Below, piece by piece: positions 4,657 through 54,491 of a DNA stretch of 64,000 nt (position 1 is the stretch's first letter; every line of letters starts with the position of its first letter). The DNA comes from Gammaproteobacteria bacterium. GTDB taxonomy: Bacteria; Pseudomonadota; Gammaproteobacteria; JAJFKG01. The position numbers were made by a program, and so were the translations under genes. The stretch covers positions 1,066,503 to 1,130,502 of the forward strand of contig OZ220716.1 in assembly GCA_965116795.1 (NCBI GenBank), written 5' to 3'. A model generated the notes under the pieces. It did not search any database. It was not told where the DNA came from and was given only the letters and a program-made list of their open reading frames with translations.

Positions 4657-4711
4657 GGGTCCTTCCTCGGGCTGAAATGCATTCGGGCATCCGTTGCGCA
4701 ATATATCGCTA
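4657..4711 (+). other. Lambda-like cos site of prophage A (cosQ + cosN)
   Basis: TACGGGTCCTT (cosQ GGGTCCT 4657-4663), GGGCATCCGTTG 4685-4696, then CGC-N7-CGCTA as in lambda cos; upstream of terminase genes. Confidence 0.75.
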
Positions 4712-4729
4712 GCGATAGAACAAAAAAAA

Positions 4730-5022
4730 GGGTTTGCGGGTTGCACCTAAACCTAAAACACAAAAAACATCAAACAAATCAAACACTTAAATCAACATTC
4801 GACCCATTTGCTCCACTCTGTGTGGTTTGCAGGCAGAAGCTAACTGATTGAATTTCATATATTTTTTTAAAATTTAGGTTTGCACCCTAGGGTTTGCAGC
4901 CAATTCACATAACTCATTGAATTCACAGCATTTATCTTAAATCTCAGTGCAAACCCAGCGTCAACAGGTTTGCACCTTGATTGCTCTTGGGGTTTGCACT
5001 CAAGCCACACCTTGGTTTGCAC
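4730..5022 (+). repeat. cosB-like array of GGTTTGCA/TGCAAACC motifs with IHF-like sites
   Basis: About 8-9 GGTTTGCA-type motifs; AATCAAACACTTA at 4777-4789; TAACTSATTGAATT at 4841 and 4910. Confidence 0.65.
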
Positions 5023-5059
5023 GTCACTCCTTCACTCACCCACTTGAAAAGGATTTGCC

Positions 5060-6349
5060 ATGGACTTGACGGTTCAACAGACACCGCTGGAACAAGTGAT
5101 CCCGTATGCCCGCAATGCGCGTATGCACAGTGAGAGCCAAGTGGCACAAATTGCCGCGTCCATTATGGAATTCGGGTTCGTCAATCCTGTATTGATTGGC
5201 AGTGATAATGTCATCATTGCCGGGCACGGGCGTGTACTGGCGGCACAGAAGTTAGATATGAAAACGGTGCCAACCATTATGCTGGTTCACCTAAATGAAA
5301 ACCAACGCCATGCCTTAGTGATTGCCGATAACAAGCTAGCGGAGAATGCCAGCTGGGATGAAACATTACTGCGTTTGGAATTACACAGTTTAATCGATGA
5401 TGATTTCAATGTGGATTTGTTAGGCTTTGATGATGTTGATTTGGATGCGTTGCTGGATGGTTTAGAGGATGAAGATAATACGACATCCGTTACTGAAGAC
5501 GATTTGCCAGAGCCGCAAACTAATCCGGTTAGCCAATTAGGACAACTGTGGGTGTTAGGCGATCATCGCTTACTGTGTGGTGATGCCACTTGTCTTGCCA
5601 GTTATAAAACACTGATGCAAGAGGAGGCAGCCGATATGGTATTTACCGATCCGCCGTATAATGTCAATTATGCTGATCCGAAAAGGGGGACACTGACCCA
5701 GCGTAACAGTCAATGCAGTCATCCACTTTTAAATGACAACTTAGGTGATGACTTTGAAACATTCATCAGCAATGCGTGCTGTCACATGCTGGCCTACACC
5801 CAAGGTGCGTTATACATTTGCATGGGACTTGGCGAAGTCGGTACGTTACGAAGTGCTTTTTGTAATGCCGGTGGTAGATGGTCAACATTTATTATGTGGG
5901 TGAAAAATAGCTTTGTCTTAGGTCATGCGGATTACCATAACCAATATGAACCTATCTTGTATGGCTGGAAGGAAGGTGATGATCATTATTGGTGTGGTGC
6001 ACGTGATCAAAGCAATGTGTGGTTTTATGACAAGATGCAAAAGAATAACTTGCACCCGACGATGAAACCAATTGGGTTGGTGAGTCGTGCGATTGAGAAC
6101 TCCAGTCAACGAGGGGAGGTAGTATTAGATCCCTTTGCGGGTTCTGGCACAACGCTGATTGCAGCAGATCAAAGCGGACGACGTGCACGGTTAATCGAAC
6201 TCAATCCTTGCTATGTGGATGTCATCATTGCCCGTTGGCAAACGCTAACCGGCAAACAAGCCTATCTTGAGGGTAGCAAACAAACGTATGACGCCCTATT
6301 ACAAGCGCAACAAATTAACACTGTTAACGTTGATGCCAAAGAGGAATAA
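5060..6349 (+). CDS. ParB-N domain / N6-N4 DNA methyltransferase
   Basis: IIAGHGR ParB motif, FTDPPYN, HPTMKP, LDPFAGSGTT. Confidence 0.92.
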   Translation: MDLTVQQTPLEQVIPYARNARMHSESQVAQIAASIMEFGFVNPVLIGSDNVIIAGHGRVLAAQKLDMKTVPTIMLVHLNENQRHALVIADNKLAENASWDETLLRLELHSLIDDDFNVDLLGFDDVDLDALLDGLEDEDNTTSVTEDDLPEPQTNPVSQLGQLWVLGDHRLLCGDATCLASYKTLMQEEAADMVFTDPPYNVNYADPKRGTLTQRNSQCSHPLLNDNLGDDFETFISNACCHMLAYTQGALYICMGLGEVGTLRSAFCNAGGRWSTFIMWVKNSFVLGHADYHNQYEPILYGWKEGDDHYWCGARDQSNVWFYDKMQKNNLHPTMKPIGLVSRAIENSSQRGEVVLDPFAGSGTTLIAADQSGRRARLIELNPCYVDVIIARWQTLTGKQAYLEGSKQTYDALLQAQQINTVNVDAKEE

Positions 6350-6354
6350 ATCAT

Positions 6355-6882
6355 ATGGGTGTTTCTATTCGTGAGTATGCCAGAGTCCGTGGGGTAAGCG
6401 ATACCGCGGTTCACAAAGCCATCAAGCAAGGACGTATTATTAAAGAACCTGATGGTAGCATTGATGTTGAACGAGCTGACAAAGATTGGTTAGCCAATAC
6501 CGTCTCATCTCAATTGAAATCGGTTCCCAATGCAGCCATACAAGATGTGATCACTACACTGCAAGAAAACGGTCAGGCTGTCTCCTCACGGGGCAACACT
6601 TTTCTTGAAGCCAAGACGGCTAATGAAATTATCAAAGCAAAAACCAATAAACTGCGCTTTAAACAATTAAATGGGGAATTACTCGAGCGCGATAAAGTTT
6701 GTGCGCAAGTCTTTCAATTAGCCCGTCAAGAACGTGATGCTTGGACTTCTTGGCCAGCGCGCATTGCGAGTCAAATGGCCGCACAATTACAAGTTGATGC
6801 GCATACATTGCAAGTGACACTGGAACAGGCTATTCGTGAGCACTTAGTTGAGTTAGGCGACATCGCGTTAACGGTTGAATAA
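6355..6882 (+). CDS. Terminase small subunit (Nu1-like HTH)
   Basis: N-terminal HTH SIREYAR.RGVS..AV.KAI; directly upstream of large terminase. Confidence 0.75.
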   Translation: MGVSIREYARVRGVSDTAVHKAIKQGRIIKEPDGSIDVERADKDWLANTVSSQLKSVPNAAIQDVITTLQENGQAVSSRGNTFLEAKTANEIIKAKTNKLRFKQLNGELLERDKVCAQVFQLARQERDAWTSWPARIASQMAAQLQVDAHTLQVTLEQAIREHLVELGDIALTVE

Positions 6883-8917
6883 CATCATGTCAACACAGAT
6901 TGTACCCATGACTTGGCGAATGGGGGTGATCCCCGATCCAAACTTAACAATTTCGCAGTGGGCAGATGAATATCGCACCTTATCACCCAAAGCCGCGGCA
7001 GAACCAGGACGTTGGCGCACCCATCGCACGCCATATTTGCGTGAGATAATGGATGCGTTATCACCACATTCACCGGTGCAACGGGTTATCTTTATGAAAG
7101 GCGCCCAAATTGGTGGCACCGAAGCGGGAAATAATTGGATTGGGTATGTTATACATTTGTCACCCGCACCAATGATGGCCGTCGCACCGACAACAGAACT
7201 GGCTAAACGTAATTCTAAGCAGCGTATTGATCCACTCATTGAAGATTGTGCCGCATTAAAAGAACGTGTTAAGCCAGCACGTTCGCGTGATTCAGGCAAT
7301 ACCGTATTATCAAAAGACTTCCCTGGTGGTGTGTTGGTGATGACCGGTGCCAACTCGGCAGTTGGGTTACGCTCTATGCCAGCGCGCTATTTATTTATGG
7401 ATGAAGTAGATGGTTACCCAGGAGATATCGAAGGCGAAGGCGATCCGATTGTTTTAGCCGAAAGACGCAGTGCGACATTTCAAACCAGGCGCAAAATATT
7501 TTTAGTCAGCACACCAACGCTCAAAGGCTTATCACGAATTAATCGTGAGTTTGAACAAACGGATAAACGTTACTATCAGATACCGTGTCCGCATTGTCAG
7601 CATTTCCAAGCATTACGTTTTGGTCAATTGCGTTGGGAGGAAGGTCATCCCGTTGATGTTACTTACCAATGTGAAGCATGCGATGAATACATTGCAGAGC
7701 ACCATAAAACAGAGCTATTAGCTAACGGTAAATGGGTGGCTACGAATGATAACCCGCAACAACGCCATACCGTCGGTTATCACTTATCAAGTTTATATAG
7801 TCCCATTGGGTGGTTTAGTTGGTCGGATGCAGCGAGTCTTTTTGAACAAGCTAAAGCGCATCCAGAGCTGATGAAAAGTTTTGTCAATACTGTATTAGGA
7901 GAGCCGTATGAAGAAGAACACGATGCACCGGACTGGGAAGCCATTTATCAAAGACGTGAGGCGTACCCACAAGGTATTGTCCCGCTTGGTGGATTGTTTC
8001 TTACAGCTGGTGTTGATATTCAAAAGGATCGTATTGAATGTGAAGTCACTGCTTGGTCACGCGATAAGCAGAGCTGGTCAGTTGATTACTTCGTTCTGGC
8101 AGGCGATACAGCGCGCTTGGAAGTCTGGCAAGCATTAGAAAAAGTATTACAGAAAGATTGGCCGCATGCATCAGGGCATACGTTACCTATCAGAGTGATG
8201 GCGGTTGACAGTGGCTATGCCACTCAAGAAGTGTATAACTGGGTGCGTCAACATCCGCAAGCCATTTGGGGTGGCGGCGGTGCCAGAGCCAATCAACCAC
8301 GCACTGTTGTTGCAGTGAAAGGACGTGATAGAGATACGGCACTCATCTTGAGTGTTTCCAAAGTCGATGTCAGTGGCAGACGTCGCGGATTGCGCGTATG
8401 GAATGTCTCCAGCTCCATTGCCAAGGTAGAATTCTATCGCTGGTTAAAGTTGGAATGGTCCATTAGCGATGATGAGTCTCAACCTACCGGCGCTCCGGCA
8501 GGTTACTGTCATTTCCCGCAGTATGAGCCAGAGTATTTCAAACAACTGACAGCTGAGAAGCGCATTATTCGGGTACACCGTGGTTATCCAAAAGCTGTCT
8601 GGGAGAAAGACCCAACGCGGCGTAATGAAGCCTTAGATTGTCGAGTGTATGCCAGAGCGGCGGCGAGTATTTATGGCTTAGACCGATTTAATGAACATCA
8701 TTGGGTTCAGTTTGAAGAAGCATTAGGTAAACCAGTGCCAGAAAAAAGTGATGTAGAAACATCAACGTTAATAGCAACACCAACAAAAGTTGTCACAACA
8801 CCACCATCGAGTGGTCGGAGTGCTTTCTTGCGCGCGATGATACAACAACGTCCCATGCAATTATCGGATGACCCGTATTTACAAGGTGATGATGATTTTG
8901 ATGTGACGGATTTTTAA
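6875..8917 (+). CDS. Terminase large subunit, lambda gpA family
   Basis: MKGAQIGGTE Walker A variant, LFMDEVD Walker B, STPT, CPHC/C..C, RNEALDC. Confidence 0.95.
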   Translation: MNNIMSTQIVPMTWRMGVIPDPNLTISQWADEYRTLSPKAAAEPGRWRTHRTPYLREIMDALSPHSPVQRVIFMKGAQIGGTEAGNNWIGYVIHLSPAPMMAVAPTTELAKRNSKQRIDPLIEDCAALKERVKPARSRDSGNTVLSKDFPGGVLVMTGANSAVGLRSMPARYLFMDEVDGYPGDIEGEGDPIVLAERRSATFQTRRKIFLVSTPTLKGLSRINREFEQTDKRYYQIPCPHCQHFQALRFGQLRWEEGHPVDVTYQCEACDEYIAEHHKTELLANGKWVATNDNPQQRHTVGYHLSSLYSPIGWFSWSDAASLFEQAKAHPELMKSFVNTVLGEPYEEEHDAPDWEAIYQRREAYPQGIVPLGGLFLTAGVDIQKDRIECEVTAWSRDKQSWSVDYFVLAGDTARLEVWQALEKVLQKDWPHASGHTLPIRVMAVDSGYATQEVYNWVRQHPQAIWGGGGARANQPRTVVAVKGRDRDTALILSVSKVDVSGRRRGLRVWNVSSSIAKVEFYRWLKLEWSISDDESQPTGAPAGYCHFPQYEPEYFKQLTAEKRIIRVHRGYPKAVWEKDPTRRNEALDCRVYARAAASIYGLDRFNEHHWVQFEEALGKPVPEKSDVETSTLIATPTKVVTTPPSSGRSAFLRAMIQQRPMQLSDDPYLQGDDDFDVTDF

Positions 8918-8955
8918 TAAAGTAAATGAGCAAAGAAACAATAGAGTAAATAATA

Positions 8956-9189: not shown

Positions 9190-9191
9190 TC

Positions 9192-10929: not shown

Positions 10930-11001
10930 ATGAAGGTATTTCCATGTGTCGGGAACCCTGAAAACAATCTCTGCATTAACTCAAAAAAGGAATACACCAT
11001 T

Positions 11002-12183: not shown

Positions 12184-12232
12184 TGGCACTTTGGATAATG
12201 GCATTTCTATTGACTAAAAAGAGGAAACCAAC

Positions 12233-21738: not shown

Positions 21739-23403
21739 ATGACAATTTTAGATTTAGGGAATATCCGCATGAATTGGTGCGGCGCGTATGACAGTGACGT
21801 TACTTACGTGCGTGATGATGTGGTGTCTTACCACGGTTCCAGCTTTATTGCCAAACGCGATGTTACTGGAATTGCTCCCACTATTGGTGATGACTGGGAT
21901 ATGTTAGCCGCGGGCACGCATCAATTGATTGAGCAAGGTGACTTGTTAACGCATGATGGTAATGCCACGATACGCTTACCCTGCGGCAATCCAGGTCAAG
22001 TATTACAAGCCGGTGATAACCAGCAACCGCAATGGCGTGATGTAGGCTTGCCTCCCTCACAAGCCGTGTGGAAATTATCACGAGTGAATGGTTTGGGCGG
22101 CTGGTATACGCGCGTCTACTTGATGCGTGATGGAACGATTAAAGCTTGCGGCTTAGGCAATAACTACAGCAACGGTGACCCCAATGCTAGCCATACTTAC
22201 TTACCGAGTCGGGTAGCCTCTTCCAATAACGATGTACGCTTTGTCAATGTCTTCTCTGGGGGTCAGCAACATTATGCGTTAACCGCTGAAGGCGATGTGT
22301 GGTCGTGGGGATTTAATAACTATGGCCAGTTAGGTCATGGCGATACGTTACATCGCAGTATGATGCGGCGTATAGATTTTTTCTTTAACAACAATATCAA
22401 GATTAAACACATTGTCACCGGTCGCCCTAATCACTTTGATTATGGCTGTGCTTTCTTCTTAACAACCGACGGTGAAGTTTATGCGTGTGGGTATAACAGT
22501 AACGGTAGTTTAGGTAATGGTACCAGTACCCATCAATATACACCGGTGCGCTGTGGAGCACTCACCAACATTGTCAGTGTTGCCGTATCGGGTCAACCCT
22601 ACAGTGTGACTGCCATTGATGAAGAGAAACAACTGTGGGTATGGGGGTGGAATGGCACGGGTCAGTTAGGATTAGGCGATATCACCGAGCGTCGCAGCCC
22701 TATCTTGCATCCCAGCTTGGATAACGTGGCCAAGGCGGTGATTACGTGCGGTTATCAGACAGATGGCAAAAGTCCTGTGGGTAATGGATTAGTGTTATTA
22801 GACGATGGCACCCTGTGGTCAACGGGTTACAACGGTTATGGACAGTTAGGGCATGGCGATACAACAACACGCAACAGCTTCGCTCAAATCCAACATGCGT
22901 CAACGTTTGTGGATATTGTCACAGGAGATGGGCGCTACCCTAGTTCTGCTGCTATCACTGATAAGAAAGAGCTTTACGTATGGGGATACAACGGTTACGG
23001 ACAATTAGGCACAGGCAATACTACACATCAACATTCACCGACCAAACCCAGTGCTGATTTTCAAGGGAATGTGGATAAAGTTTGTTTTGGCGGCGGTGCC
23101 AGTTATGAAGGCTGCATTGTTCAAAGTGGCAATACATTATGGGCGGCTGGTTATGGTAACCGTGGTAACCTGGGTACTGGCTCAAATGCTAATGCCAATA
23201 ATCAATTCAAACACGTACTCGGACAATCGGGTGAGATTGAAGGCTGGGGGTGCTTCGGTCAAGGCCAGACGGATTGGGGATTGGGCGTACTGTATACCGA
23301 TGGGCGTGTGGATGCGTGTGGGTATAACAGCAGTTACGGTCAGACCGGTACGCAAAGTGGCAACTTGCATCATGTGTTAGTACTCAAGAACGTTATTTTT
23401 TGA
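21739..23403 (+). CDS. RCC1-repeat protein, putative tail fibre / receptor-binding protein
   Basis: Repeated W.WG.N.YGQLG.G motifs; N-terminal W.GAY....Y...DVV.Y.GSS phage fibre motif. Confidence 0.85.
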   Translation: MTILDLGNIRMNWCGAYDSDVTYVRDDVVSYHGSSFIAKRDVTGIAPTIGDDWDMLAAGTHQLIEQGDLLTHDGNATIRLPCGNPGQVLQAGDNQQPQWRDVGLPPSQAVWKLSRVNGLGGWYTRVYLMRDGTIKACGLGNNYSNGDPNASHTYLPSRVASSNNDVRFVNVFSGGQQHYALTAEGDVWSWGFNNYGQLGHGDTLHRSMMRRIDFFFNNNIKIKHIVTGRPNHFDYGCAFFLTTDGEVYACGYNSNGSLGNGTSTHQYTPVRCGALTNIVSVAVSGQPYSVTAIDEEKQLWVWGWNGTGQLGLGDITERRSPILHPSLDNVAKAVITCGYQTDGKSPVGNGLVLLDDGTLWSTGYNGYGQLGHGDTTTRNSFAQIQHASTFVDIVTGDGRYPSSAAITDKKELYVWGYNGYGQLGTGNTTHQHSPTKPSADFQGNVDKVCFGGGASYEGCIVQSGNTLWAAGYGNRGNLGTGSNANANNQFKHVLGQSGEIEGWGCFGQGQTDWGLGVLYTDGRVDACGYNSSYGQTGTQSGNLHHVLVLKNVIF

Positions 23404-24946: not shown

Positions 24947-25329
24947 TGGCACACATTGTTATTCTGCATAATCCTTTTTTGTGTGAGCGTGGGCGAGAGC
25001 TGCTTGCTGTTGATCATTCCATTACTATTGCAACGTGGTTAACGCAGACTAATATTGTTACATTTGAATTGCCAACCATTTGTTTAGTCAATGGCAATGC
25101 CGTGTTACGTCAAGATTGGCAAACGACAATTATAGGCGTCAATGATGTCATCACCTTTATTACCTTGCCACAAGGCAGTGGGGGCGGCGGTAAAATCTTA
25201 CGTTCCGTGTTAATCAACTATGGTTTTCAAATGTTTAAAAATTTTTCTTTTAGCGAAGAAATATACAAATATGGCTAGGTACAGCACATGGCTATAAGCA
25301 AAGATAAAGAAAAAAGTAGATACTAAGAC

Positions 25330-25470
25330 GCCTTACAAAGCACAAATGAATATAGGTTAAGCGTGGTTATTGTCAAGGGTGGCTTCACTAACAGTGGTGC
25401 ATTCAGCATTGCACTGCAACCCTTGACAATAACCACGCTTAACCCAAAATGTCATCATGCCTTGTAAGGC
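25330..25470. repeat. Long hairpin in IS110 right end
   Basis: Perfect 26-bp inverted repeat 25355-25380/25419-25444, plus outer GCCTTACAA/TTGTAAGGC arms. Confidence 0.85.
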
Positions 25471-25506
25471 TCGTTCTGTGCTACATCTTGCGATTAAAGT
25501 ATTATT

Positions 25507-26466
25507 TTAAGTAATTGTAGCGTTTGCATTTACTTGGCCTGTTTCAATAAAATGATCGCGCATTCTTGCATTCGCTATCACAATAATTTTTCGCATTAAT
25601 GCCACTAACGCTACCATCTTTCTTTTACCAGACTCAACTAAACGTCTATAAAAATCGCCTAATGCTCCTTTACTTTTAGCTGCAGCCATTGCTGCAATAA
25701 ACAATATCCGTTTCACTTCTTCTCGACCACCTCGAGTAAATCGATAACCTTGCTTAGTGCCGCTATCGTTAGGATGAGGGGCTACACCGGCTAAGGAGGC
25801 GATTTGTTTTCGATTTGCCTGACCCAATTCCGGCATAAAAGCCAACAATGTTGAAGCAACTACTTCACCAACACCGGGTATCGTTTGCAAAATCTTTTTT
25901 GTTTCAAGCAATGAGTTGTCTTGCTCATAGATCAGATTGATTTTCTTTTCGATTTGCTTAATTTCCTCGGTAAAATACGCTATCATCCTGTCGATGCTCT
26001 CTGTAAGAATTTCTTGTTCTGGTGATTGCAAACGATTCTTTTCTTGCACTAACATTTTGGTTAACTCATTACGGCGCAGAAGTAGTTTTTGCAGTATTTT
26101 ATTTGCTGGTTCTTTGTATACCTCTAAATCAGCATGACGCTCATAACCGTACTTAGCTAAACCTAATGCATCAATCGTGTCTGTTTTACCCAGTTGGCCA
26201 AACGAACGAATAAAGTGTTTTACTTTGCGTGTATTAGCTCGATGTACAGCATAGCCTTTTTCTTGCAATGCGCGAATCAACGCTAATTCGTGTCCACCTG
26301 TCGTTTCTAACACTATCAGTGCTGAGGATAGCTTACTTGCCCATTCCTCAAGATAACGTGCGATACCGACAGCGTTATTCTCATAAACGCTGACTTCTTT
26401 TTCCCCATGGATGGCACTGTAAAACTCATACTTACCAATATCAATTCCTATAAATTTCTGATACAT
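25507..26466 (-). CDS. IS110 family transposase/recombinase
   Basis: GIDIGK, ETTG, KTD.IDA (DEDD), TIPGVG, DSG catalytic serine loop. Confidence 0.95.
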   Translation of the reverse strand: MYQKFIGIDIGKYEFYSAIHGEKEVSVYENNAVGIARYLEEWASKLSSALIVLETTGGHELALIRALQEKGYAVHRANTRKVKHFIRSFGQLGKTDTIDALGLAKYGYERHADLEVYKEPANKILQKLLLRRNELTKMLVQEKNRLQSPEQEILTESIDRMIAYFTEEIKQIEKKINLIYEQDNSLLETKKILQTIPGVGEVVASTLLAFMPELGQANRKQIASLAGVAPHPNDSGTKQGYRFTRGGREEVKRILFIAAMAAAKSKGALGDFYRRLVESGKRKMVALVALMRKIIVIANARMRDHFIETGQVNANATIT

Positions 26467-26489
26467 TACATATTCCCTCGTGCGTTTAA

Positions 26490-35700: not shown

Positions 35701-36098
35701 CGAGCTCGAGTTCTCAATCTAAAGCAAGCACAAGTCAAGCGCAATCGGTGGATGCGTATTATGCCGGTCGCAGTGATGTGTATGGCGGGACATCATCCAG
35801 CGGCAGCAGCGCTACCTTATTCCAGGCGGCTGCTCCGCCTCCCCCGTTGCCGGATGACGAGGATGATGTATTAGAGGCGGTCGCGACGGGGAATTACCGT
35901 GCGCGAGAGGGGAATCAGTTGTCGTTTGCCAAGGGAGCGACGTTAACCGTGCTTGAGCAACAGCCTTCTGGCTGGTGGGTGTGTGAGTTGAATGGCAAGC
36001 AAGGGTTGGCGCCGGGGAATCGGTTGCAGTTGGTAGAGCCACAGGTGAGTCAGTCGCAAGCAGGTGAATCCTCGACGGAGAGTATGGGGTATGTGTAA
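32757..36098 (+). CDS. Eukaryote-like WD40(x7)-SH3-TKL-type protein kinase-SH3
   Basis: Seven GH..V.ALA...D.TIKCW repeats; two SH3 (WW....G..P.NY type); GAGGFG, VAIK, HLDLKSMN, DFG, GTLRWMAPE. Confidence 0.9.
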   Translation: MFKGSEKESSNRELAEKAGQCLSIWKGHKGSVTALAVLEQGRRGKPLVVSASWDNTIKCWEMDEKTGKAQCLSAWEGHAYGVNALAVLEQGERGKRLVLSGSDDNTIMCWQMDEKTGKAQCLSTWEGHKGSVYALAVLEQGGLGKRLVVSASHDKTIKCWEMDEKTGKARCLSTWEGHTGSVRALAVLEQGGLGKRLVLSAGDNTIKCWQMDEKTGEAQCLSTWEGHTGSVRALAVLEQGGLGKRLVVSASHDKTIKCWEMDEKTGKAECLSTWEGHTHWVRALAVLEQGERGKPLVLSASMDKTIKCWQMDEKTGKAECLSTWKGHKRGVFALVVLEQGERGKQLVLSGSGDETIKCWQGFPVPQAVQEQKKAARQEKRLAFEKQHGLVPIRGAQGVKAEEGANVSASSSVSKKSRSEEESVGKKEKAGKEKKEKRTKKKEGPSKKKSSRRHRDSEAALPALPKGEVKALQGYLAPADSGQLSLRSGETLTLLSDEGNWWRCRNESAAEGLVPSNYVKKVVTSTSTDSPLPSMPSPLPELPAKPAAAAASIASSSESDKPSDKTSSQPSVSEGQSTSGGAPTVTPSPSSGRLKAALASAEQRSTSSFESGGGSSFGSKEKVSSESRGGSSTLLLDAQGKAQVDPVLAYEDLTFGKVLGAGGFGEVYKGQWQGVDVAIKKLLQKHLTEAMESTFRKEAGVMVQLRGTHPNIINMYGIVLVPEPCMVLEFMGRGALDGLLHGKVPMSWEMRYTIGLDVARGLFYLHNKRILHLDLKSMNVLMAKDGTAKLADFGLSEIKGSTSQQSAWGDESKKAGGTLRWMAPELFRGGRYRPSCDVYSFAMVLWELASRQVPYRYQLNAAIPEYVKTGGREAVPVDTPASVQALMVRCWAADASTRPKMGEVMKDLQAHPVTDETPIPSPHLSGVDDEDVWSDEETTESDGYAMGRTAPQPAAPTSQAAAVESVDYAVRSEVPGVLPSASPSSSSQSKASTSQAQSVDAYYAGRSDVYGGTSSSGSSATLFQAAAPPPPLPDDEDDVLEAVATGNYRAREGNQLSFAKGATLTVLEQQPSGWWVCELNGKQGLAPGNRLQLVEPQVSQSQAGESSTESMGYV
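32808..33837 (+). repeat. Seven near-identical ~147-bp intragenic WD40 repeats
   Basis: Recurrent GCCTTGGCGGTGCTGGAGCAGGGG...ACCATTAAGTGTTGG units. Confidence 0.9.
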
Positions 36099-36274
36099 AG
36101 GTTGTCGATTCTGCGCAAGGGTTTGAGACGTTTCAGGATAATAACAACAACAAGCAGGTCTGTGTGAGCAGGATGGTTTGATGGGTGCCAGGTGGCCTAT
36201 CAAGCCAGGATAGTTGAGGCGCTGTCTGGATGAACGAGGCAAGCGTATGTGTTATTTGTCATATAAGGAGAGAG

Positions 36275-45866: not shown

Positions 45867-46759
45867 GATGTTTCTCCTTCAGGTTGTTGAGATGGGTTTG
45901 TATGATTAGGGATAACGTGTGTTAACCGTTCATTAGGCGGTTTAGCTTTGCCAGCAATTTTCTGCATGAGCTTGCCAAGATGCGGTTCTTCAATAACGTC
46001 TAATCTGCCAGAGCGATCTTTAGCGGGATAGCCACTTTCATTTAATGTTTGACAGACAAACGCACGATAGGATTGATTATCATTATTGACGATTTCGGCC
46101 ATGGTGATCACTTCATCCACAATGCCCGGCAACTCTAAACTGGTTTTGCTGCCCTCGATTTGCGGTTGATAAAAACGGTGATTAAAGTCATCTGTTTTTT
46201 CATCGAGAATACCGACAAACCAAATGTTCTTATTACGTGTGTGCTGTAAGTGTGTCAGCCAAGCCAGCATCTCTTGACCGTGTAATCCATAGGCGGCACG
46301 CATATCCGTTTTTCCGCTTCGTTCACTGAAGGCTTGGGGTTGGCCTTTGCACCAGTTAAAACACAAACGACCTGCCACGGTAATAGAGTCGATGAAGATG
46401 GTGTCGTACTTATCAAGGATGCTGGGTTCCCCCAATTGCTGACACACCGCTTGATAATGTGCTTGGCTGTAACACTGCTCATCGCGCAGTGCCGGATCGC
46501 CACCCCCAATAAAACAGGCAATATCACGACAGGCTTGCCAGGTACGGGGGCGAATGGTATCGCCTTGCCAGCCTTCAATGGCTAAATCCCCGGCTTCTAA
46601 ATCAAAGAACAGTGTCTTCTCTGCAGGCAATGTCCAGAGTAATGATGTTTTGCCAATCCCACTTTTGCCAAAGATGCAGCCTTTAATGCCTTTGGTTTCA
46701 TTGACGCGTTGATTCATGGATAAAATGGCAAGGCCATCGGTTGTGTGTGTTGTGCTCAT
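45863..46759 (-). CDS. AAA_24 / Sak4-like ATPase
   Basis: GKSGIGKT, DLEAG, FIDSIT, AKDRSGRL. Confidence 0.88.
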   Translation of the reverse strand: MSTTHTTDGLAILSMNQRVNETKGIKGCIFGKSGIGKTSLLWTLPAEKTLFFDLEAGDLAIEGWQGDTIRPRTWQACRDIACFIGGGDPALRDEQCYSQAHYQAVCQQLGEPSILDKYDTIFIDSITVAGRLCFNWCKGQPQAFSERSGKTDMRAAYGLHGQEMLAWLTHLQHTRNKNIWFVGILDEKTDDFNHRFYQPQIEGSKTSLELPGIVDEVITMAEIVNNDNQSYRAFVCQTLNESGYPAKDRSGRLDVIEEPHLGKLMQKIAGKAKPPNERLTHVIPNHTNPSQQPEGETS

Positions 46760-46920
46760 CGGGCTTTCTCCTGTTTCTCAATTTCTCTTTTCAATACCAA
46801 CAGACTGTCGATGCAGGTAAATAACGTGCGTGCCTGCTGCTTGCGTTGGATAAGTTCCTCATCGGGTAAGGTGATAAGGTCGTTTAACGGTTTGTAAAAC
46901 AGATAATCTAGGTACAACAT
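46756..46920 (-). CDS. Small hypothetical protein, 54 aa (not in ORF track)
   Basis: AGGAG RBS; MLYLDYLFYKPL...; ATGA overlap with AAA_24 gene. Confidence 0.6.
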   Translation of the reverse strand: MLYLDYLFYKPLNDLITLPDEELIQRKQQARTLFTCIDSLLVLKREIEKQEKAR

Positions 46921-47060
46921 GGTTTTTTCTCCTGTTTCAGTTAATGGTTAAGTAAGTGGTACCCGCGCTTGCCATAGAGATGACAAAAACACGATCCCCT
47001 CACTACTGTTAACTACGCCATTGCTCCCAATTTTTGAGTATCGTCGTTGCAATAGTTCAA

Positions 47061-47621
47061 TCATTTCCCATGGTGCCAATAGATGTGCAGTCCATGTTCT
47101 ATTAATGCACTACGCAAGCGTTTAAGTTGTTGCCTGACGGTGAAGTAAGGGGTGTTGGTCAGTCGTGCGATGTCGATGAGGGTTGAAGAGCACAGCCTGA
47201 GCAGCAAAGTCGCCAGGTCATCGGGTAATCTGTCTTTGATACGGCTTAGATCACAGGCTAAATCACATGCCGAGTTCTCTTGGATAAGGTGTGCTGGCCA
47301 GGGTGAATAAGCGTCTTGTTCATCAACAGCTAACAGGGTTTCAAGTGAGTGGTGTGGAATACCTGCCCCATGTTTTTGTCTGCCGGCATCACGAATAAGC
47401 TGTTTGTGGACACAGTTGAGTACCAGATCCACAAACGTTGACCACTTGGCTTGATCGGGATCGTAAGTGTGCTGGCGCAGGAAGAAATGCAACAGCAAGG
47501 TTTGTTTTAGATCGACCAGGGGAGTGTGTTGTAACAGTGGATGGTGTTTCAAGGTCTTGGCATGGTAGTCGACTTGGCTGATCAAATACGGCTCTAATCC
47601 GTTGTAGTGGTGGTAAGGCAT
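47061..47621 (-). CDS. Sigma-70/ECF-like phage regulator
   Basis: AGGAG RBS before MPYHHY; D..Q.L......YDP....TF region-2-like and LP......L.DIA region-4-like HTH. Confidence 0.6.
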   Translation of the reverse strand: MPYHHYNGLEPYLISQVDYHAKTLKHHPLLQHTPLVDLKQTLLLHFFLRQHTYDPDQAKWSTFVDLVLNCVHKQLIRDAGRQKHGAGIPHHSLETLLAVDEQDAYSPWPAHLIQENSACDLACDLSRIKDRLPDDLATLLLRLCSSTLIDIARLTNTPYFTVRQQLKRLRSALIEHGLHIYWHHGK

Positions 47622-47672
47622 GACGGTTCTCCTAATGCTGGCCGCCACACACGGGCGGTACACTAGGACGTG

Positions 47673-47793
47673 GTCAGATCTGACGGAGCTGGGGGTATAA
47701 ATGACCGGTGGTTTAGTTAACCCCTTCATTGTGAAGTGGCTTTTAAATGAGTTTTTTTGAAAAAATGCCAATCGAACGCCGTCAGATCTGACG
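47673..47793. promoter_or_regulatory. Two perfect palindromes GTCAGATCTGAC (operator-like)
   Basis: 47673-47684 and 47781-47792, 108 bp apart, upstream of the sigma-like gene. Confidence 0.6.
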
Positions 47794-47843
47794 CAAACAG
47801 TTTATAAATGAACCTTTAGGTAATAAATTTACCCGAGGATAAG

Positions 47844-47987
47844 GTGGAGCCATTGAGTGCTGATCGAGTGGATCCATTAGCTGATGATCCGGTGGATCCA
47901 TTGAGTGCTGATCGGGTGGATCCATTAGCTGATGATCCGGTGGATCTTTTAGGTGCTGATCGGATGGATCCACTCACTAATGATCCG
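47844..47987. repeat. Six 24-bp tandem repeats (alternating A/B), 11 GATC
   Basis: GTGGATCCATTGAGTGCTGATCGG / GTGGATCCATTAGCTGATGATCCG. Confidence 0.9.
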
Positions 47988-48024
47988 GTGCATGTAGTTG
48001 GAATGCTAACGGGCAATGACGATA

Positions 48025-48435
48025 TTAGCCTGTAAACCCAAAGTGGGTGAGTTGCTCCTCCCATAATGATGGGAAAGGCAGCAGTAGGGTTTGTAAGCTC
48101 AACTCAGGGGGTTGTGTGCCGTCTAATATCGCCCTTTTGATTTGCGGTGATAATAGATTTAACCGCAGTATGCGCGAGACGTAGGAGGGATTGACCTGTT
48201 TACCTTTGGCCAATGTATCAATCGAAGTAAATTGCCCGGTGTCTAAGGCATGTTGCCAGAGGTAGGCTTTGGTGAGGGCTTTAATCAGGGGGATATTGGG
48301 TTTGGCGGCGGTCGCGGTGGGTTGCTGTTCGCCTTCTGGCAATACCAGTAGGGTTTGTCCACGGTAGCGTTTAAGGGTGATAGGAATTCTAATAGAAATA
48401 AAGTCATCAAAAGCGGTTACGGTTGTGGTTGACAT
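48025..48435 (-). CDS. Recombinase-associated HTH protein
   Basis: KAL.KA..W...L..G...SI..LA......SYVSRILRL..L.P.I...IL.G.QP. Confidence 0.75.
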   Translation of the reverse strand: MSTTTVTAFDDFISIRIPITLKRYRGQTLLVLPEGEQQPTATAAKPNIPLIKALTKAYLWQHALDTGQFTSIDTLAKGKQVNPSYVSRILRLNLLSPQIKRAILDGTQPPELSLQTLLLPFPSLWEEQLTHFGFTG

Positions 48436-49805
48436 GCTCCCTCCGTTGAGTGGGTGTTAACGTGTAGTAGATCCAGCAAACCGGTAATGCCATTGATTTT
48501 GACTTGGATGTCGACATAATCTGAATGCAGCACGACACGGTTAATTAACAGTGATAATAAGCGTTGTTGTTCAGTGGGAAATAACTCTTGCCAAATGGGG
48601 GCGATGTTTTGTAAGGCGTTGCGTACTTGGGATGGTGTTATCGACTTATCGAATGTCTTTGCAGCCTTGAGGGTATCTAAGAGAATATCCGGTGAGGTGA
48701 TGACACGCTGAACCTGGTGCAGTACATGGGTTTCAATTTCATTGGCGGCGATTTGTTTGATCGGGCAATCAGGGCAGCGTCCTTTCTTGTAACCGGTGGC
48801 GATGTAGTAACGGTAAAGTTTGCGGTGTTGTTTGCTGGTGTGGGTGGGTGTCATCGCACGTTGACAGCCGCCGCAGTGAATGATCCCAGTTAATACGGCA
48901 CGTGCACGTCGCTTGCCTTCTGTGTCGCCACGTTTTGCGCCTTCACGCAAGATGGCTTGTGTTTTGTCCCAGATTTCTTGTGAAATAATCGCTTCATGTC
49001 GGCCTTGGTATAGAGTGTCTTTATGTTTAATTTTGCCGATATAAATGGGGTTTTTGAGGAGCTTGTAAATACTACCCATATCCAGTGGCACTCCACCCAT
49101 CGTACGACCGTCTTTGGTAAGGCGTCGTTTACTGCAAACACCCATGGCAGCGAGTTGCTTTACCATCAGCGTGGGTGATTTGGTTTTGAGAAATAAATCA
49201 AAGACAGCGCGAATGGTACGAGCCTCACTGTCAACACTGTGTAAGTGTCGGTCTTTAACATCATAACCTAAAGGCAAGACGCCACCCATCCACATGCCCT
49301 TGCGTTTAGAGGCGGCGAACTTATCACGCACACGCTCGCCAATGACTTCACGTTCAAATTGGGCGAAGGATAATAAAATGTTTAACGTTAACCGTCCCAT
49401 CGAGGTGGTGGTATTAAAATGTTGGGTGATTGACACAAAGGACACTTGCTGTGCGTCAAACACATCGGCTAACTTGGCAAAGTCAGCCAGTGAACGCGAT
49501 AAGCGGTCAATCTTATACACAACCACGGTATCGATATGCCCTTGTTGAATGGCATCGAGTAACCGCGTTAAGGCGGGTCTACTTAAGTTACCGCCACTAA
49601 AGCCACCATCATCATAGTGCTCTGGCAGTAACACCCAACCTTCTTGTTTTTGCGAGGCAATGTACGCCTCACAAGATTCGCGTTGGGCATCCAAGCTGTT
49701 GAACTCCATCTCCAATCCTTCTTCAGTGGATTTACGGGTGTAGATAGCGCAACGTTTTTTAATGACGGTAGTCAGTGATGTTTGTTTCGCTATTTTTGTT
49801 TTCAT
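48417..49805 (-). CDS. Large serine recombinase (integrase)
   Basis: AIYTRKS, DRLSRS, GRLTLNILLSFAQFERE, Zn-ribbon C..C. Confidence 0.93.
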   Translation of the reverse strand: MKTKIAKQTSLTTVIKKRCAIYTRKSTEEGLEMEFNSLDAQRESCEAYIASQKQEGWVLLPEHYDDGGFSGGNLSRPALTRLLDAIQQGHIDTVVVYKIDRLSRSLADFAKLADVFDAQQVSFVSITQHFNTTTSMGRLTLNILLSFAQFEREVIGERVRDKFAASKRKGMWMGGVLPLGYDVKDRHLHSVDSEARTIRAVFDLFLKTKSPTLMVKQLAAMGVCSKRRLTKDGRTMGGVPLDMGSIYKLLKNPIYIGKIKHKDTLYQGRHEAIISQEIWDKTQAILREGAKRGDTEGKRRARAVLTGIIHCGGCQRAMTPTHTSKQHRKLYRYYIATGYKKGRCPDCPIKQIAANEIETHVLHQVQRVITSPDILLDTLKAAKTFDKSITPSQVRNALQNIAPIWQELFPTEQQRLLSLLINRVVLHSDYVDIQVKINGITGLLDLLHVNTHSTEGACQPQP

Positions 49806-50269
49806 CCACGCATTCCTTTTGTGTGATGTAATCCAAAAAAGGCGATGCCTGACCAATGGTTACCGGTAATGCGTTTGGCAATCTTGGATAAGCTTTTGTA
49901 AACACAGCCGTCATATTCATAGCCTTTATCTAAGACGGTGACGCAATATTCATGATCTTTGTATTGGCGCACCAATCGTGAGCCTGGCATCGGGCGAATG
50001 TAACGCGGTCGTTTGGGGGGTGCGCCGTTGCGCGTAAAAAACTGTTTAGCATATTCTTCCAAGCGCTGATTGAGTGTGTCATCTTCACCATAGGCTAAGG
50101 CTTGCAGGCGATAACTGAGTTTTTTAATCAGTGCAGGTTTTTGAGCCGCGCGTGGCGGCTTGGTGTCACACAGCGTTTGCCAGAGGGCTTTTAACTCGTT
50201 TAATGACAACATTTGTAAGCCAGCTATTTGACGGAGTAGTTTGGGGTTAGCTTTGCTTTGGGTAGGCAT
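49802..50269 (-). CDS. DUF2924-like protein
   Basis: Paralog of 117..587; ATGA overlap with recombinase. Confidence 0.8.
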   Translation of the reverse strand: MPTQSKANPKLLRQIAGLQMLSLNELKALWQTLCDTKPPRAAQKPALIKKLSYRLQALAYGEDDTLNQRLEEYAKQFFTRNGAPPKRPRYIRPMPGSRLVRQYKDHEYCVTVLDKGYEYDGCVYKSLSKIAKRITGNHWSGIAFFGLHHTKGMRG

Positions 50270-50287
50270 GTTATTTCCTCCTATAAG

Positions 50288-50467
50288 TCATGCGATTGTG
50301 TCAGTCGTATCAGTCCATAGTGTGGTGTCGAAGTCCAGCGGGTGAGTCGGATCAGGCGACTTAGTGCGCTGTTCACGGCGTTTTTTCGCACGTACAATGC
50401 CCAATGCCAATAACGTGGCTACCTCACGGCGACGAGATGGGATCGTGTTAATCATTTCAGTTGACAT
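50288..50467 (-). CDS. Small conserved phage protein, 59 aa (not in ORF track)
   Basis: MSTEMINTIPSRRREVATLLALGIVRAKKR...LDF; paralog of 620..793. Confidence 0.65.
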   Translation of the reverse strand: MSTEMINTIPSRRREVATLLALGIVRAKKRREQRTKSPDPTHPLDFDTTLWTDTTDTIA

Positions 50468-50766
50468 GGGGAGCTCCTATTTCAATAACATGGGTGATGA
50501 GAGCGCGTGATAAAACGCTCCCCTCATGACTATTAACTATGCCGTTTGAACGAAAAAATGAGTGTGTGCGCATTTACTGACATGATGATTGGCATTTACG
50601 CCTTTGTGATTTTTCAAAGTGTGCTCTACAGTGGCTCGTCTACAACAAACAAATTTCGACATGGCTACACGCTAGCAACACACAACAACTTATCATTCAA
50701 AACAATCGGGGTTACACAGGATGGCAATTTGGCATTAACCCGTGTCGTTGGCTGTTATGACACTCA

Positions 50767-51345
50767 ATGACATTTCTCATGTGTTTGTTCAGGAGAACGC
50801 CATTGAAAATTCACCTTGCTGCCTCTGAGTTATCATCGAGCTCAATCTCATCTAATCAAACTAACACCCCCACTTGCACCCATTTATCATTGGATGCATT
50901 ACGTAACGTTACCCATCCGGCTCATGGGTTTGCAATAACAGAAGGTATCGATGATGTGATCCTGATTAAGTTGCAATACAATTGTGGGGGTCAGCTTGAC
51001 ACGCATCAATCCAGTAACGTATGGGGCACATTGATTAAGAAAAATCAGCAACGGTGCATGCGGTATGCAGACATTATGCAAGGAACATTTGTGATGCAGC
51101 GTACCGCTAACTCAACCCCGATAACAGTTGATATTCATCCCGGGAAAGGGGTGATAACCATAGACGATAACCAAGATAACAATCTGTGTACTCTACCCGC
51201 GGTAATAGCCGAGATAAAGAAAATTGTTTGTAAGTGGATGAAGCAAGCGGGATTTGTGATCACACTTCCAGTGGCTTCATCAAGTGACAAGGGTATCGAA
51301 AAAAAAATCAGATCCCCATTTTCTCTATTGGGAAGCCCTAGCTAG
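50767..51345 (+). CDS. Hypothetical phage protein
   Basis: Paralog of 1107..1595; start uncertain. Confidence 0.65.
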   Translation: MTFLMCLFRRTPLKIHLAASELSSSSISSNQTNTPTCTHLSLDALRNVTHPAHGFAITEGIDDVILIKLQYNCGGQLDTHQSSNVWGTLIKKNQQRCMRYADIMQGTFVMQRTANSTPITVDIHPGKGVITIDDNQDNNLCTLPAVIAEIKKIVCKWMKQAGFVITLPVASSSDKGIEKKIRSPFSLLGSPS

Positions 51346-52306
51346 GTTGCCTCGTTATCAGCACAGTTATGTGTTTTTAATGCAACATTTCAATCAGAAC
51401 ATTGCTATCATTCAGTATTGGTTTGAGTCAACACGCTGGTTTGATCATATAACGTATGATAATCATCATGCTCAAGAAAAAGAATCGACGCGCTTGTATA
51501 ATGTGAGCTTATTAAAGTTAGCCAACTTCATCATAAAGGGGCTCAGTGAGCTCTCACTGTTTCGCCGTGCGATTCAGGTTGTGAATGCCGCGCCTCATTG
51601 TGTGCGCTTAGGCTTTTATAGCGTCAATCGTCGTGCAGCCCACTGTGTATTGTTAGGGATGGCTATCGATGAAGGTGAATTAGAGAAAATGATTAATTAT
51701 GTGCTTATCCAAGAGACACCAAGCGTGTTGTTACTGCCCTCTATCGATGATGTCTCCGCAGACAACTTGCAAGCGTTACGGATTAAAGGCAGTCAGGTTG
51801 TTGCACTGCAACAATGGCAAACCCAAGCGGTGTTGATTGACAAACAGCAGGTAGTTGATACGTTTAATGACATTCACAGAATAACAACACCGGTTAAATT
51901 ACGTCGCAATCCATCTGGCCAACCGTATCGTTTCCCAACACCCCCCGGTGCTAACTGGGAGGATTTCACTTTCCAATTCATTAATGGAGAAACAATACAG
52001 GTGACGTGTGATTGTGAAGGAGGTTATGCCAGTGAGAGCGTTAGCCTTGACAAACTTGAGCTGCTGGACAAGCGCAGTGATAAGCCTAATAAATTAGGGT
52101 TATTACTAAAAGCGTTTGCGCAAGGTCACGGCATGTTTAGTTGGCCGTATCAAGGTGTGACCAGTCAACAAAGGACGCTGAAATACGCCTTAGCTAAATC
52201 TTTACAAGCAAGCTTTGGGATATATGACAGTGATCCATTCGTTTGTGAGCAAGAAGATAGTGGCCGTGTCACCTATCAAGCGTTATTTAACGTACTACCA
52301 GAGTAA
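51284..52306 (+). CDS. Hypothetical phage protein with FPTP.GA.WED domain
   Basis: Paralog of 1570..2514. Confidence 0.75.
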   Translation: MTRVSKKKSDPHFLYWEALARLPRYQHSYVFLMQHFNQNIAIIQYWFESTRWFDHITYDNHHAQEKESTRLYNVSLLKLANFIIKGLSELSLFRRAIQVVNAAPHCVRLGFYSVNRRAAHCVLLGMAIDEGELEKMINYVLIQETPSVLLLPSIDDVSADNLQALRIKGSQVVALQQWQTQAVLIDKQQVVDTFNDIHRITTPVKLRRNPSGQPYRFPTPPGANWEDFTFQFINGETIQVTCDCEGGYASESVSLDKLELLDKRSDKPNKLGLLLKAFAQGHGMFSWPYQGVTSQQRTLKYALAKSLQASFGIYDSDPFVCEQEDSGRVTYQALFNVLPE

Positions 52307-52337
52307 ATGATGGTGTCCTGTGTATGGCATTTATTCT

Positions 52338-52601
52338 TTAAACAATTCTCGTTTTTTCATAAGTGGGTATATCCCGTGGTGTTAAGTTATCACATAAATG
52401 AGATGTTTCTGTGAGCATATCGGCTAAGCTACACAACACATCAAATAACTCTTGTTCTTTGATCTCTTTAGATCTAATAGTAATGTTAGCAATGTTCTTC
52501 ATCTGATGCAGTTTGGCACACAGTGCTTCATACGGGTTGCGATAATTATCATCATTGCTCTTTTCGGGACTATGAGGTTGCGGTAAAATGGGCTCACTCA
52601 T
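52338..52601 (-). CDS. Small hypothetical phage protein
   Basis: GGAGG RBS; paralog of 2587..2859. Confidence 0.7.
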   Translation of the reverse strand: MSEPILPQPHSPEKSNDDNYRNPYEALCAKLHQMKNIANITIRSKEIKEQELFDVLCSLADMLTETSHLCDNLTPRDIPTYEKTRIV

Positions 52602-52630
52602 GACGTTTCACCTCCGTGTTAGGTTTTAAG

Positions 52631-52678
52631 GTTGTGATAGCCGCAGGAAGGTGGTACCAACACGTTTCTGCGGTGCCA
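52631..52678 (-). promoter_or_regulatory. Conserved 33-nt hairpin in leader of 52338..52601
   Basis: GTTGTGATAG-CCGCAG..CTGCGG-TGCCA, covarying with 2890..2937. Confidence 0.55.
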
Positions 52679-54436
52679 ATGATGATTGCTCGGTGTGATG
52701 GTAATAGCAACTTAAGTGATGAGCGTCAGAACGGTTATTACGCTGCTTAGCGACATTATATGCCGACTAGCCTAATTACCTTGCAAAATAAGGCATAACC
52801 TTGCCCTAATGAAGTGACACAACTATCCCGAATGCCTGCATGATTATTGACAATAATGGGTAACTTAGTCGTCTGTTAAAGCCGCTAATCCGGTTTGGAA
52901 TGCTGTAAAAAATAATTGACATGACAAAAACGCTATAGACGCTCTATACCCAACGAACTCAATGCAAGTGTCACCTTGCCCTACGCTACTTCACTAAACG
53001 TAATAAATGGCTTCTATGAAATACTTAACGATGTAAACGATATACAGCATACATAGGGCTCTAAAAAACGTACACAAACCCCTTAAAAAAACTTCACAAA
53101 ATATCTCTTGGCTCTAGAACAACTTTTCTCTAAAAGTCACTAGCAACACAAGTCATTAGCTTTACATTTTTCTCTGTGCCTAGTTTGGAATATCTCGGGT
53201 TCTAAACTGTTTGGTGAAATTGCACTTAACGCTTTGTTATTGGAGGGGTTATGCTGAGTATGAGTTTGTGGGTGTAACCTATATATTATAAATAATATAT
53301 ATAACGCTATAAACACTCTGTGTTTTATAGCTGTTGTAATGGAGTAATGGTTTGTAAACGAAAAGCAATAGGGGTTTAGGTTAAAATTACAATACCCCTA
53401 AAACGCTTATAGACGATTACTAGTACACTTACAGCCTAGAATTACGTAATAAAAGCAAATTAGACTTCAATCGTGAATGAAAGATGAATTATCACTGTTA
53501 ACGTGTTGCCATGTTATTTATGCAGGTGGAAAAATAGGGGGATTAAATAAATAATTTTACGCCGCGCTGCACCTGCAAACATAAAACCGTAACGATAGAA
53601 ATTCAATGCGCGATCGATTTTAAATGTCGCGCACAACAGCCGTACAAGATCGCTACACGCTTTTCTACGCATAAGACATGGGGTAGTGGCTCTTCAAGTT
53701 AAATCGTTGCTTGAATCGCTTTATTTTCAATTATGGTGAAGTGGTATTGTTAAGTGTGTAGTCTGGACTCACTTCATCTAAGCAAAACGTAAACGTAAAT
53801 GCTGTTAACACAAACGCGAATTGCAAAACGTTTACGCCTTTGTCAATGCAAGACGTTAACAAGCTGTTGTGTATTTCGCTAAGACGAGTTGCAAGTTAAT
53901 GCATGATGAATAACAGGCAAGTAGATCACCTATTTCAATTGCATTTATTCTAGGTTTTTACCGTTATTTTTATGCTTATGCCAGGGCATAGGGGAGTCTA
54001 ACTTTTGCTATTTTTGGCAAATGACAAGTTTAAGTACACCGTGTTATTTACGAAATGATGAGGTTATCGTGCAATGTTTTAATTGCAACAAAAAAGCGAT
54101 TTTGTGTTAGACTTTTTGTTAACGTCGGAAGTGGTTTACATAACGCAAGTGCAAGTAACACGACTGATTGTTAACGTTACGATATACAAGTTAGCTCAGC
54201 TAATACGTTACAATGAACGTTAACAAAAGTTTGTCATTAACATGAATGAACACACACATGTTAATAGCAACTTGAATATGTTGTCGTGCAACAACTTTTT
54301 TGTAGAGACGATAACAAAACGTGATAGATATAGATTACATAGATGTGTTAACAACGGGGGCGTGAAAACACGATACAAACAGCAGATAGCTGAATACAAA
54401 TCGGCACTAGAACATCTTAGACAATCAAACACCTAC

Positions 54437-54491
54437 GGGTCCTTCCTCGGGCTGAAACGCATACGGGCTCCTGCAGCGCAATATTTCGCTA
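54437..54491 (+). other. Lambda-like cos site of prophage B
   Basis: GGGTCCT 54437-54443, GGGCTCCTGCAG 54465-54476, CGC-N7-CGCTA. Confidence 0.75.

Follow-up and report, generated by a model that had tools for sequence, protein, structure and literature searches.

Lambda-like cos sites with different predicted cohesive ends in two tandem prophages of a gammaproteobacterial prophage array

Two neighbouring prophages, here called A and B, lie in a 64,000-nucleotide stretch of a gammaproteobacterial chromosome (assembly GCA_965116795.1, contig OZ220716.1; hereafter the window), and each carries a sequence resembling the cohesive-end (cos) site of phage lambda. The locus raises the question of why two sites with shared signals should have different predicted cohesive ends, and what would become of the DNA between them. 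The window has two exact copies of a 23-mer beginning TACGGGTCCTT, which lie on the plus strand at positions 4654 and 54434; none of 100 shuffles gave any match. The sites are in direct orientation and 49,780 bp apart, or 1.026 times the length of lambda, which bears out the original prediction, made from the letters of the window, of two lambda-like cos sites at this spacing. The heptamer GGGTCCT, identical to lambda cosQ, the termination signal in that phage, is present on the plus strand at both sites (4657-4663 in A and 54437-54443 in B) and in 10 of the 11 copies of the site in the genome; it starts 29 nt before the predicted nick in A and B versus 30 nt in lambda. CG pairs at both predicted nicks are invariant in all 11 copies, with 11 nt between them. 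The motif CGC-N7-CGCTA stands downstream of both window sites, and the conserved CGC-N7-CGCTAGCG segment that follows the overhang of A (4697-4714, plus strand), which is I2-like, is near-invariant in all 11 copies. Beyond it are cosB-like regions (4738-5022 in A and 54518-54844 in B, plus strand), each holding seven GTTTGCA repeats, which in A occur in both orientations and are candidate TerS sites. The first repeat stands at +53 after each site, and the seven of A fall within 364 nt, versus 0.13 expected per 400 nt. Collectively, these features suggest that the motifs are likely to be the cos-type sites of two prophages with gpA-type terminases.

The length of the cohesive ends was assigned by register. 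Each lambda nick is flanked by two base pairs that read CG, as described in PMC4669245 and as checked in the lambda record J02459. Among the best 40 terminase matches, the closest annotated isolates with mapped ends are the RcC phages of Rhodobacter, whose TerL is 49% identical to that of the array described below and whose TerS is 39% identical with a near-identical N-terminus. Sequencing pile-ups place 5' overhangs of 11 bases at the ends of these phages (PMC8601537). In the records of RcDormio and RcKemmy, the sequence starts with GGGGGCGGAAG after a terminal CG, and the CGC-N7-C.CTAGCG further on has the same register as in A and B, a comparison that assumes that the records start at the overhang. 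When a pattern allowing 9-13 nt was scanned, 32 of 155 loci matched, and the length was 11 nt in 27 of the 31 loci from outside this genome. RcCronus, with a 13-nt end, was uninformative as an additional calibration, its overhang being carried at both ends of the record. Since CG pairs flank 11 nt here and the register agrees with the 11-base RcC ends, the overhang is most likely 11 nt long (CG^N11^CG), with predicted 5' ends GGCATCCGTTG at 4686-4696 in A and GGCTCCTGCAG at 54466-54476 in B, both on the plus strand and differing at five positions. The 12-mers that had been proposed at 4685 and 54465 are present and do differ at five positions; as overhangs they were rejected by the RcC register in favour of the 11-mer that starts one base later. 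The description of the flanks as nearly identical is accurate within about 30 nt, with two differences between A and B in the 32 nt before the nick and one in the 18 nt after the overhang, but fails further out, where identity is 60% at -100 to -33 and 74% at +30 to +120. Both the CG^GG-N8-G^CGC register and a ParB-domain gene after cos are present, which is a trait of the site and not a sign of RcC-cluster membership. The Feiss definition of a lambda-like cos also names a cosB with R3-I1-R2-R1 sites for TerS and IHF, a gpA-type TerL and a Nu1-type TerS; the cosQ and flanking CG pairs fit this definition, and the predicted overhang length does not. Thus, the sites would work like lambda cos without being strict members of the lambda-like class.

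Judged by gene order, the interval from cosA to cosB is the right arm of A, an attP-like attachment (att) junction and the left arm of B, a permuted hybrid phage chromosome in linear form. Gene coordinates confirmed that two kinase genes, an Rpn gene, an intron-like insert and the replication arm of B lie between the sites. The length of the interval is like that of lambda because it is the length of one phage unit: A measures 50,120 bp from att to att and B 55,998 bp, and A-B is one of seven neighbouring cos pairs in the genome that are 41.6-64.2 kb apart. The similarity to lambda is therefore true without being particular to this pair. The proposal of a transducing particle, or one like a gene transfer agent (GTA), did not hold, since no host housekeeping genes were recognised among the 62 window open reading frames (ORFs) of at least 80 aa that were scanned and the interval encodes the full phage complement. 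Packaging by GTAs starts from an integrated prophage, and host DNA is packaged, in amounts smaller than needed to encode the particle itself; the interval here, in contrast, holds phage and cargo genes only.

Packaging of this interval in place is a plausible by-product of the kind already described for lambda. In lambda, cosN and cosB start packaging, cosQ and cosN end it irrespective of the downstream cosB, and in the presence of a helper the DNA between the cos sites of tandem prophages is packaged (PMC4669245). Cos-to-cos packaging from tandem prophages, as the original prediction had it, is possible in principle on this precedent, and the cosQ, the repeat type and the nearly identical TerS N-terminus that A and B share make it plausible here. 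If A and B behave as lambda does, the downstream repeats would serve as binding sites for TerS, the nicks of TerL would fall at CG^N11^CG, and the next cosQ-cosN would halt packaging regardless of which cosB it has. On induction, a resident terminase could then package cosA to cosB straight off the chromosome as a by-product, yielding a full-length hybrid chromosome with the structural arm and cargo of A, the att junction and the replication arm of B. The predicted free energy of the A/B duplex is -5.5 kcal/mol, versus -14.6 and -15.2 kcal/mol for matched ends and -4.5 kcal/mol for random GG-N8-G pairs, consistent with the expectation that mismatched ends impede circularisation. Lambda and N15 ends, which have two mismatches, lower viable yield about fourfold and do not block circularisation (PMC4669245), and the predicted duplex of lambda with positions 9 and 12 changed is -14.3 to -16.7 kcal/mol; circularisation of the A/B hybrid should, on these predictions, be far worse. 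Most of the particles that carry such a hybrid would come to a dead end, save for those rescued by recombination with a resident prophage. The ends of B and those of the next unit, C, are predicted to pair at -11.0 kcal/mol through a one-base slip.

The resemblance to the lambda dilysogens packaged with lambda and N15 ends (PMC4669245) extends to the direct tandem of prophages with an upstream cosN-cosB and a downstream cosQ-cosN about one genome apart, to the same cosQ and CG pairs at both nicks, and to differing overhang alleles. That pair was constructed, whereas the present one belongs to a natural array of about ten units with a predicted 11-nt overhang. The two mismatches of the constructed pair are in the right half, whereas the five seen here include left-half positions; and the constructed pair was tested in vivo, whereas packaging of the present one is predicted from sequence.

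A and B are the first two units of a head-to-tail string of about ten related prophages or remnants. This array spans about 500 kb (contig positions ~1,057,160-1,559,500, or window -9,340 to ~+493,000) and makes up 20% of a genome assembled as one contig of 2.45 Mb with 41% GC, 97.7% completeness and 0.1% contamination. All 11 copies of the cos-like site are on the plus strand, and nine different ends are predicted. Eight of the 11 lie between the 3' end of a tRNA-Glu gene, 9.3 kb left of the window, and ~+493 kb; three further cos-bearing units lie between window +999 and +1,190 kb, and the genome holds two relatives that are more distant elsewhere. The array holds 14 att-like junctions, with a core that agrees with the 3' end of tRNA-Glu, and 10 lysozyme genes, some of them interrupted. 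A large serine recombinase gene is present in each of the 11 units, and none of the four tyrosine-recombinase matches of the genome falls in the array; the serine recombinase is likely to be the integrase of these units. Several units lack most structural genes, while unit E has all 26 marker genes. The cos pattern was found in none of 400 other genomes of the class and at 22 viral loci, and 51 of 178 loci examined carry the cos motif. Between units C and D, at window +139,700 to +145,300, an inverted segment carries an Rpn gene, two kinase genes and an att junction.

Why, then, do the ends differ? Across the 11 sites the nine alleles differ by a mean of 4.5 mismatches, and the differences are confined to the interior of the overhang: positions 1, 2 and 11 and both CG pairs are the same in every copy, and positions 3-10 show a divergence of 0.57 per site over 55 pairs. 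In nine of the phage genes that these units carry, divergence at fourfold-degenerate sites is 0.41-0.55. The two values are close, as drift predicts, and drift is the best explanation of the differing ends. Because an interior change would leave the two ends of a phage complementary to each other, it would come close to being neutral, and the variants would be reshuffled by exchange inside the conserved cos block. We regard it as probable that these are ordinary cos sites of tandem prophages, likely with 11-nt ends, whose differences reflect drift at interior positions that terminase does not read.

Several observations weigh against this reading. Relatives were compared from the 51 motif loci, of which 31 with a terminase remained after duplicates were removed and 29 fell in one cluster. 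Despite a higher synonymous divergence (0.60 versus 0.43), interior differences number 2.6 of 8 in this cluster, compared with 4.8 of 8 here. Two polylysogenic chromosomes of Shiga toxin-producing Escherichia coli (STEC) have the exact lambda end at 11 of 12 lambda-type sites, as scored with a pattern that would miss sites with divergent flanks. The changes seen here also fall in the left half of the overhang, which is constrained in lambda, and plain neutrality does not explain why constraint should be lifted only in the phage family of the array. The tail-tip genes of A and B are interrupted by IS110, so that particles would need the tail tip of another unit. Finally, cutting and packaging at cosA and cosB are predictions from the assembled sequence.

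Interior positions here change at about the synonymous rate, which is 3-4 times the rate in the relatives. By parsimony, changes per site per unit of third-position tree length number 0.25 in the relatives and 1.56 here, a value inflated by mosaicism; tree-free bounds of 12-16 changes give 0.8-1.1 here. The cosQ-cosN spacer and the overhang interior diverge by 0.24 and 0.60, respectively, in this genome, versus 0.42 and 0.33 in the relatives, where three alleles cover 24 of the 29 loci; the relatives are mostly two or three clades and not independent samples. Interior constraint thus appears lifted in the phage family of the array, at a rate not clearly above neutral. Neighbouring ends are no more mismatched than random ones (P = 0.20 for the minimum and 0.28 for the mean): all seven packageable neighbour pairs differ at four or more positions, an outcome that random placement gives 20% of the time, and the two pairs with identical ends are not packageable neighbours. 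In one alphaproteobacterial chromosome (OZ245897.1), two related prophages have the same predicted 11-mer, unlike the array.

These data also bear on the alternative that diversifying selection has turned the cohesive ends into a self/non-self code in this phage family, by blocking circularisation of hybrids, the joining of ends from co-infecting phages, or, conceivably, resealing of chromosome stubs cut by terminase with loss of a unit, so that arrays with mismatched neighbours would persist. In its fullest form, one phage family would have built the 500-kb array and evolved hypervariable ends as a barcode, with shared packaging signals that let any terminase cut any neighbour, hybrids that cannot close and stubs that cannot reseal, so that the effector-laden array is kept from collapse. 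The number of alleles and their mean mismatch, the differences of at least four positions in every neighbour pair at 41.6-64.2 kb, an interior 2.5 times more divergent than the cosQ-cosN spacer here and less divergent than it in the relatives, a rate that exceeds that of the relatives even on the tree-free bounds, and the uniformity of the E. coli polylysogens are all consistent with such selection. We nevertheless consider selection of this kind rather doubtful, and the full barcode scenario equally so, because the rate is not clearly above synonymous, the adjacency test is not significant, the B-to-C pair would still anneal, the relatives are non-independent, and capsids spent on hybrids are not saved by mismatched ends. 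Mismatched ends might insulate the two phages, as had been suggested for this locus; neighbours are no more mismatched than random pairs. Still less probable than such selection is the view that nothing is cut or packaged today and that the sites survive as relics of a mostly silent array, which decays but is retained because of its cargo. The broken tail-tip genes of A, B and G, the units that lack most structural genes, and the lack of a terminase match in a genome of the same genus (90% complete, 60 contigs) would fit decay. However, decay would spread differences along the site, whereas cosQ (in 10 of 11 copies), both CG pairs and the downstream motif are near-invariant, the reading frames for terminase, portal, capsid and lysis proteins are still open in A and B, and unit E is complete in its marker genes.

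A selected, GTA-like route, in which cos-to-cos packaging would transfer the kinase cargo from cell to cell on linear DNA that does not replicate, is very unlikely, although a cargo region would be bracketed by every cos-to-cos interval, kinases recur in several units at 35-60% identity, and ends that do not circularise might favour recombination over lytic growth. Cargo lies between cos and att in any prophage of this layout and would be carried by normal excision too, the gene content of the interval is that of a phage, and the breakpoints near cos in G and E are not at the overhang, mosaic breaks being common across the structural arm. An assembly artefact that strings phage variants together is just as improbable. 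Among the public contigs listed, none bridges the A/B junction or spans cos to cos; yet the genome is one nearly complete contig with little contamination, the structural arms of A and B are only 80-90% identical, the junctions follow a consistent att motif anchored at tRNA-Glu, and public contigs agree, without a single difference, with unique segments of A, of B and of the adjoining host DNA. Nine runs, all in the form of Logan contigs, were available; contigs of four runs were compared with window 38,000-57,900 and those of four with the host/attL/cosA stretch, and no accumulation of molecule ends was seen, in a kind of data that does not reveal ends. The depth of these contigs, which is not copy number, was flat across the host, the left arm of A and the right side of cosA: it was 65 for the host, 59-63 for the left arm of A and 63 to the right of cosA in run X4; in run X2 it was 8983 for the host, 7490-8207 for the left arm of A, 5502-5899 for the right end of A and 6602-7480 for the left arm of B, again not a measure of copy number. 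Contig depth counts neither for nor against packaging. The reading as ordinary cos sites with drifting interiors remains the one that we favour.

The closest parallels were sought among known systems. RcDormio, RcKemmy and RcOceanus (PMC8601537) share the CG^N11^CG register, an overhang that starts with GG and ends with G, the CGC-N7-C.CTAGCG that follows it, and a ParB-domain gene first after cos; in these RcC phages, protease and capsid are fused in one gene and no integrase is annotated, whereas the prophages of the array encode lambda gpC/gpD/gpE together with a serine recombinase and carry eukaryote-like cargo. Phage WO and the proposed Symbioviridae (PMC9203015) resemble the array in a gpA terminase that is 51-53% identical at the level of the terminase protein, a lambda-type head, a large serine recombinase and eukaryote-like genes at the prophage end. 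As described there, they carry a PAAR gene in a connector/baseplate module, whereas A and B have a siphovirus-type tail, with no match to a PAAR or baseplate family among the scanned window ORFs, and a recombinase located some 8 kb in from the att end. The word "cos" is absent from the main text of that paper. Tandem and nested prophage clusters in STEC and enteropathogenic E. coli (PMC8112680) likewise place several effector-carrying prophages at one locus through shared att sites. In contrast, the present array is larger, belongs to one phage family, and has diverse ends where those of STEC are uniform, with 11 of 12 identical in two chromosomes. Lateral transduction, as described for P22 (PMC8575938), also starts packaging from an integrated prophage, but does so by pac/headful packaging of host DNA; here there are a cos-type site and a gpA terminase, and the DNA downstream is another prophage, whose cos would bring packaging to an end before any host DNA is taken in. 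According to the same source, cos phages do not perform lateral transduction.

The proposed mechanism is classical lambda genetics, and the A-B pair alone is unsurprising; nine predicted ends among eleven sites in one genome are unusual. The array offers seven natural "dilysogens" in one chromosome and makes testable whether cargo moves naturally by in situ cos packaging and what conserves cohesive ends in most phage groups. The mapped 11-nt cos of the RcC phages is extended to a wide family of proteobacterial prophages by the motif loci described above. If the ends prove to be selected for diversity, they would add to immunity and TerS-cosB specificity a further means by which phages tell one another apart, one that we have not found described; in the literature search, no title or abstract opening was found that describes diversified cohesive ends among co-resident tandem prophages.

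Units of the array are mosaic around cos. Unit G resembles D as far as the nick and F from 55 nt ahead of the nick onwards, unit E resembles C to +50 and I from -45, and identity tracts switch partner inside the cos block in G, E and J. Linkage in the left arm holds over the seven steps from orf48025 to cos (Mantel r 0.43-0.83) and drops from 0.74 to 0.07 across cos. A role for cos as a unique recombination hotspot was rejected, similar breaks being found at many structural-gene boundaries. The formation of hybrids by end-joining was not supported: in G and E the partner changes about 15 nt upstream of the nick and more than 35 nt downstream of it, outside the overhang, as placed by few informative sites. 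Homologous exchange in the conserved block is sufficient. Two repeat types were observed, GTTTGCA with TerS SDTAV (A, B, C, D and K) and GTTCGC with TerS SDMAV (E, F, G and I). Repeat type and one TerS residue co-vary in nine of nine of the units of this genome, which possibly represent two packaging specificities, but the pairing is not kept among relatives, 26 of which combine that residue with the alternative repeat type.

The gene content of A and B was assigned by domain searches. To the right of cosA, on the plus strand, A encodes a ParB-domain DNA methylase, TerS (6355-6882) and gpA-type TerL (6875-8917) within 5060-8917 (Pfam PF01555/PF02195, PF05876 and PF20454; phrog_57), followed at 8956-32087 by a lambda-type portal, gpC/gpD/gpE head genes, siphovirus tail genes and a lysis region (Pfam, PHROGs, NF040662). 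B has the corresponding ParB-methylase, TerS (56169-56711) and TerL (56721-58748, 93% identical to that of A) at 54888-58748, also on the plus strand (Pfam, PHROGs). The TerL of A and B passes both gpA Pfam cut-offs, and TerS matches phrog_57 at 3e-29 and has no BLASTP similarity to lambda Nu1. The replication arm of B (42187-50269, minus strand; Pfam, PHROGs) encodes DUF6362, RuvC-like, primase/AAA_25 and AAA_24 proteins, the large serine recombinase (48417-49805), which matches PF00239, PF07508, PF13408 and phrog_95, and DUF2924. The recombinase and DUF2924 genes (48417-50269) lie about 8 kb inside the att end and do not adjoin it, and the best NCBIfam matches are of the Ccr/XisF type, below cut-off.

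The cargo of A (32757-39283, plus strand; domain searches) consists of a WD40-kinase-SH3 gene (32757-36098), an MLKL_N-kinase-Sel1 gene (36230-38224) and Rpn (38390-39283). Homologues of these eukaryote-like kinases occur at +87-96, +129, +142-145, +421-425 and +480-487 kb and resemble the eukaryotic association module of WO. The attP-like A/B junction (40774-40781, plus strand) has the core ACGCCA(TT), a sequence match to the 3' end of the tRNA-Glu gene at the left edge of the array. Before it, A has an att copy interrupted by an ORF-less group II-like intron in the right arm (39606-40515, plus strand), followed by a second, intact right arm. The intron has three copies in the genome at 94%, the others near +340,870 and +369,530, with the insertion a few bases before the att core, and a sub-threshold Rfam match to D1-D4 (E 0.15). 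No Rfam family reached its gathering score in the window, and no tRNA was found there.

In the tail module, the IS110 element at 25215-26680 (minus strand) splits the tail-tip gene of A into 110 aa and 663 aa, compared with 752-753 aa in uninterrupted units; the gene is not interrupted in D, E, H and I. Identical IS110 transposases occur at the same tail-tip site in A, in B (+82,354) and in G (+408,576), which points to recent targeted insertion or gene conversion. A HicA/HicB toxin-antitoxin pair (28685-29312) is inserted between the tail tip and lysis genes of A, and a 554-aa RCC1-repeat protein (21739-23403) recurs in the tail module of at least seven units.

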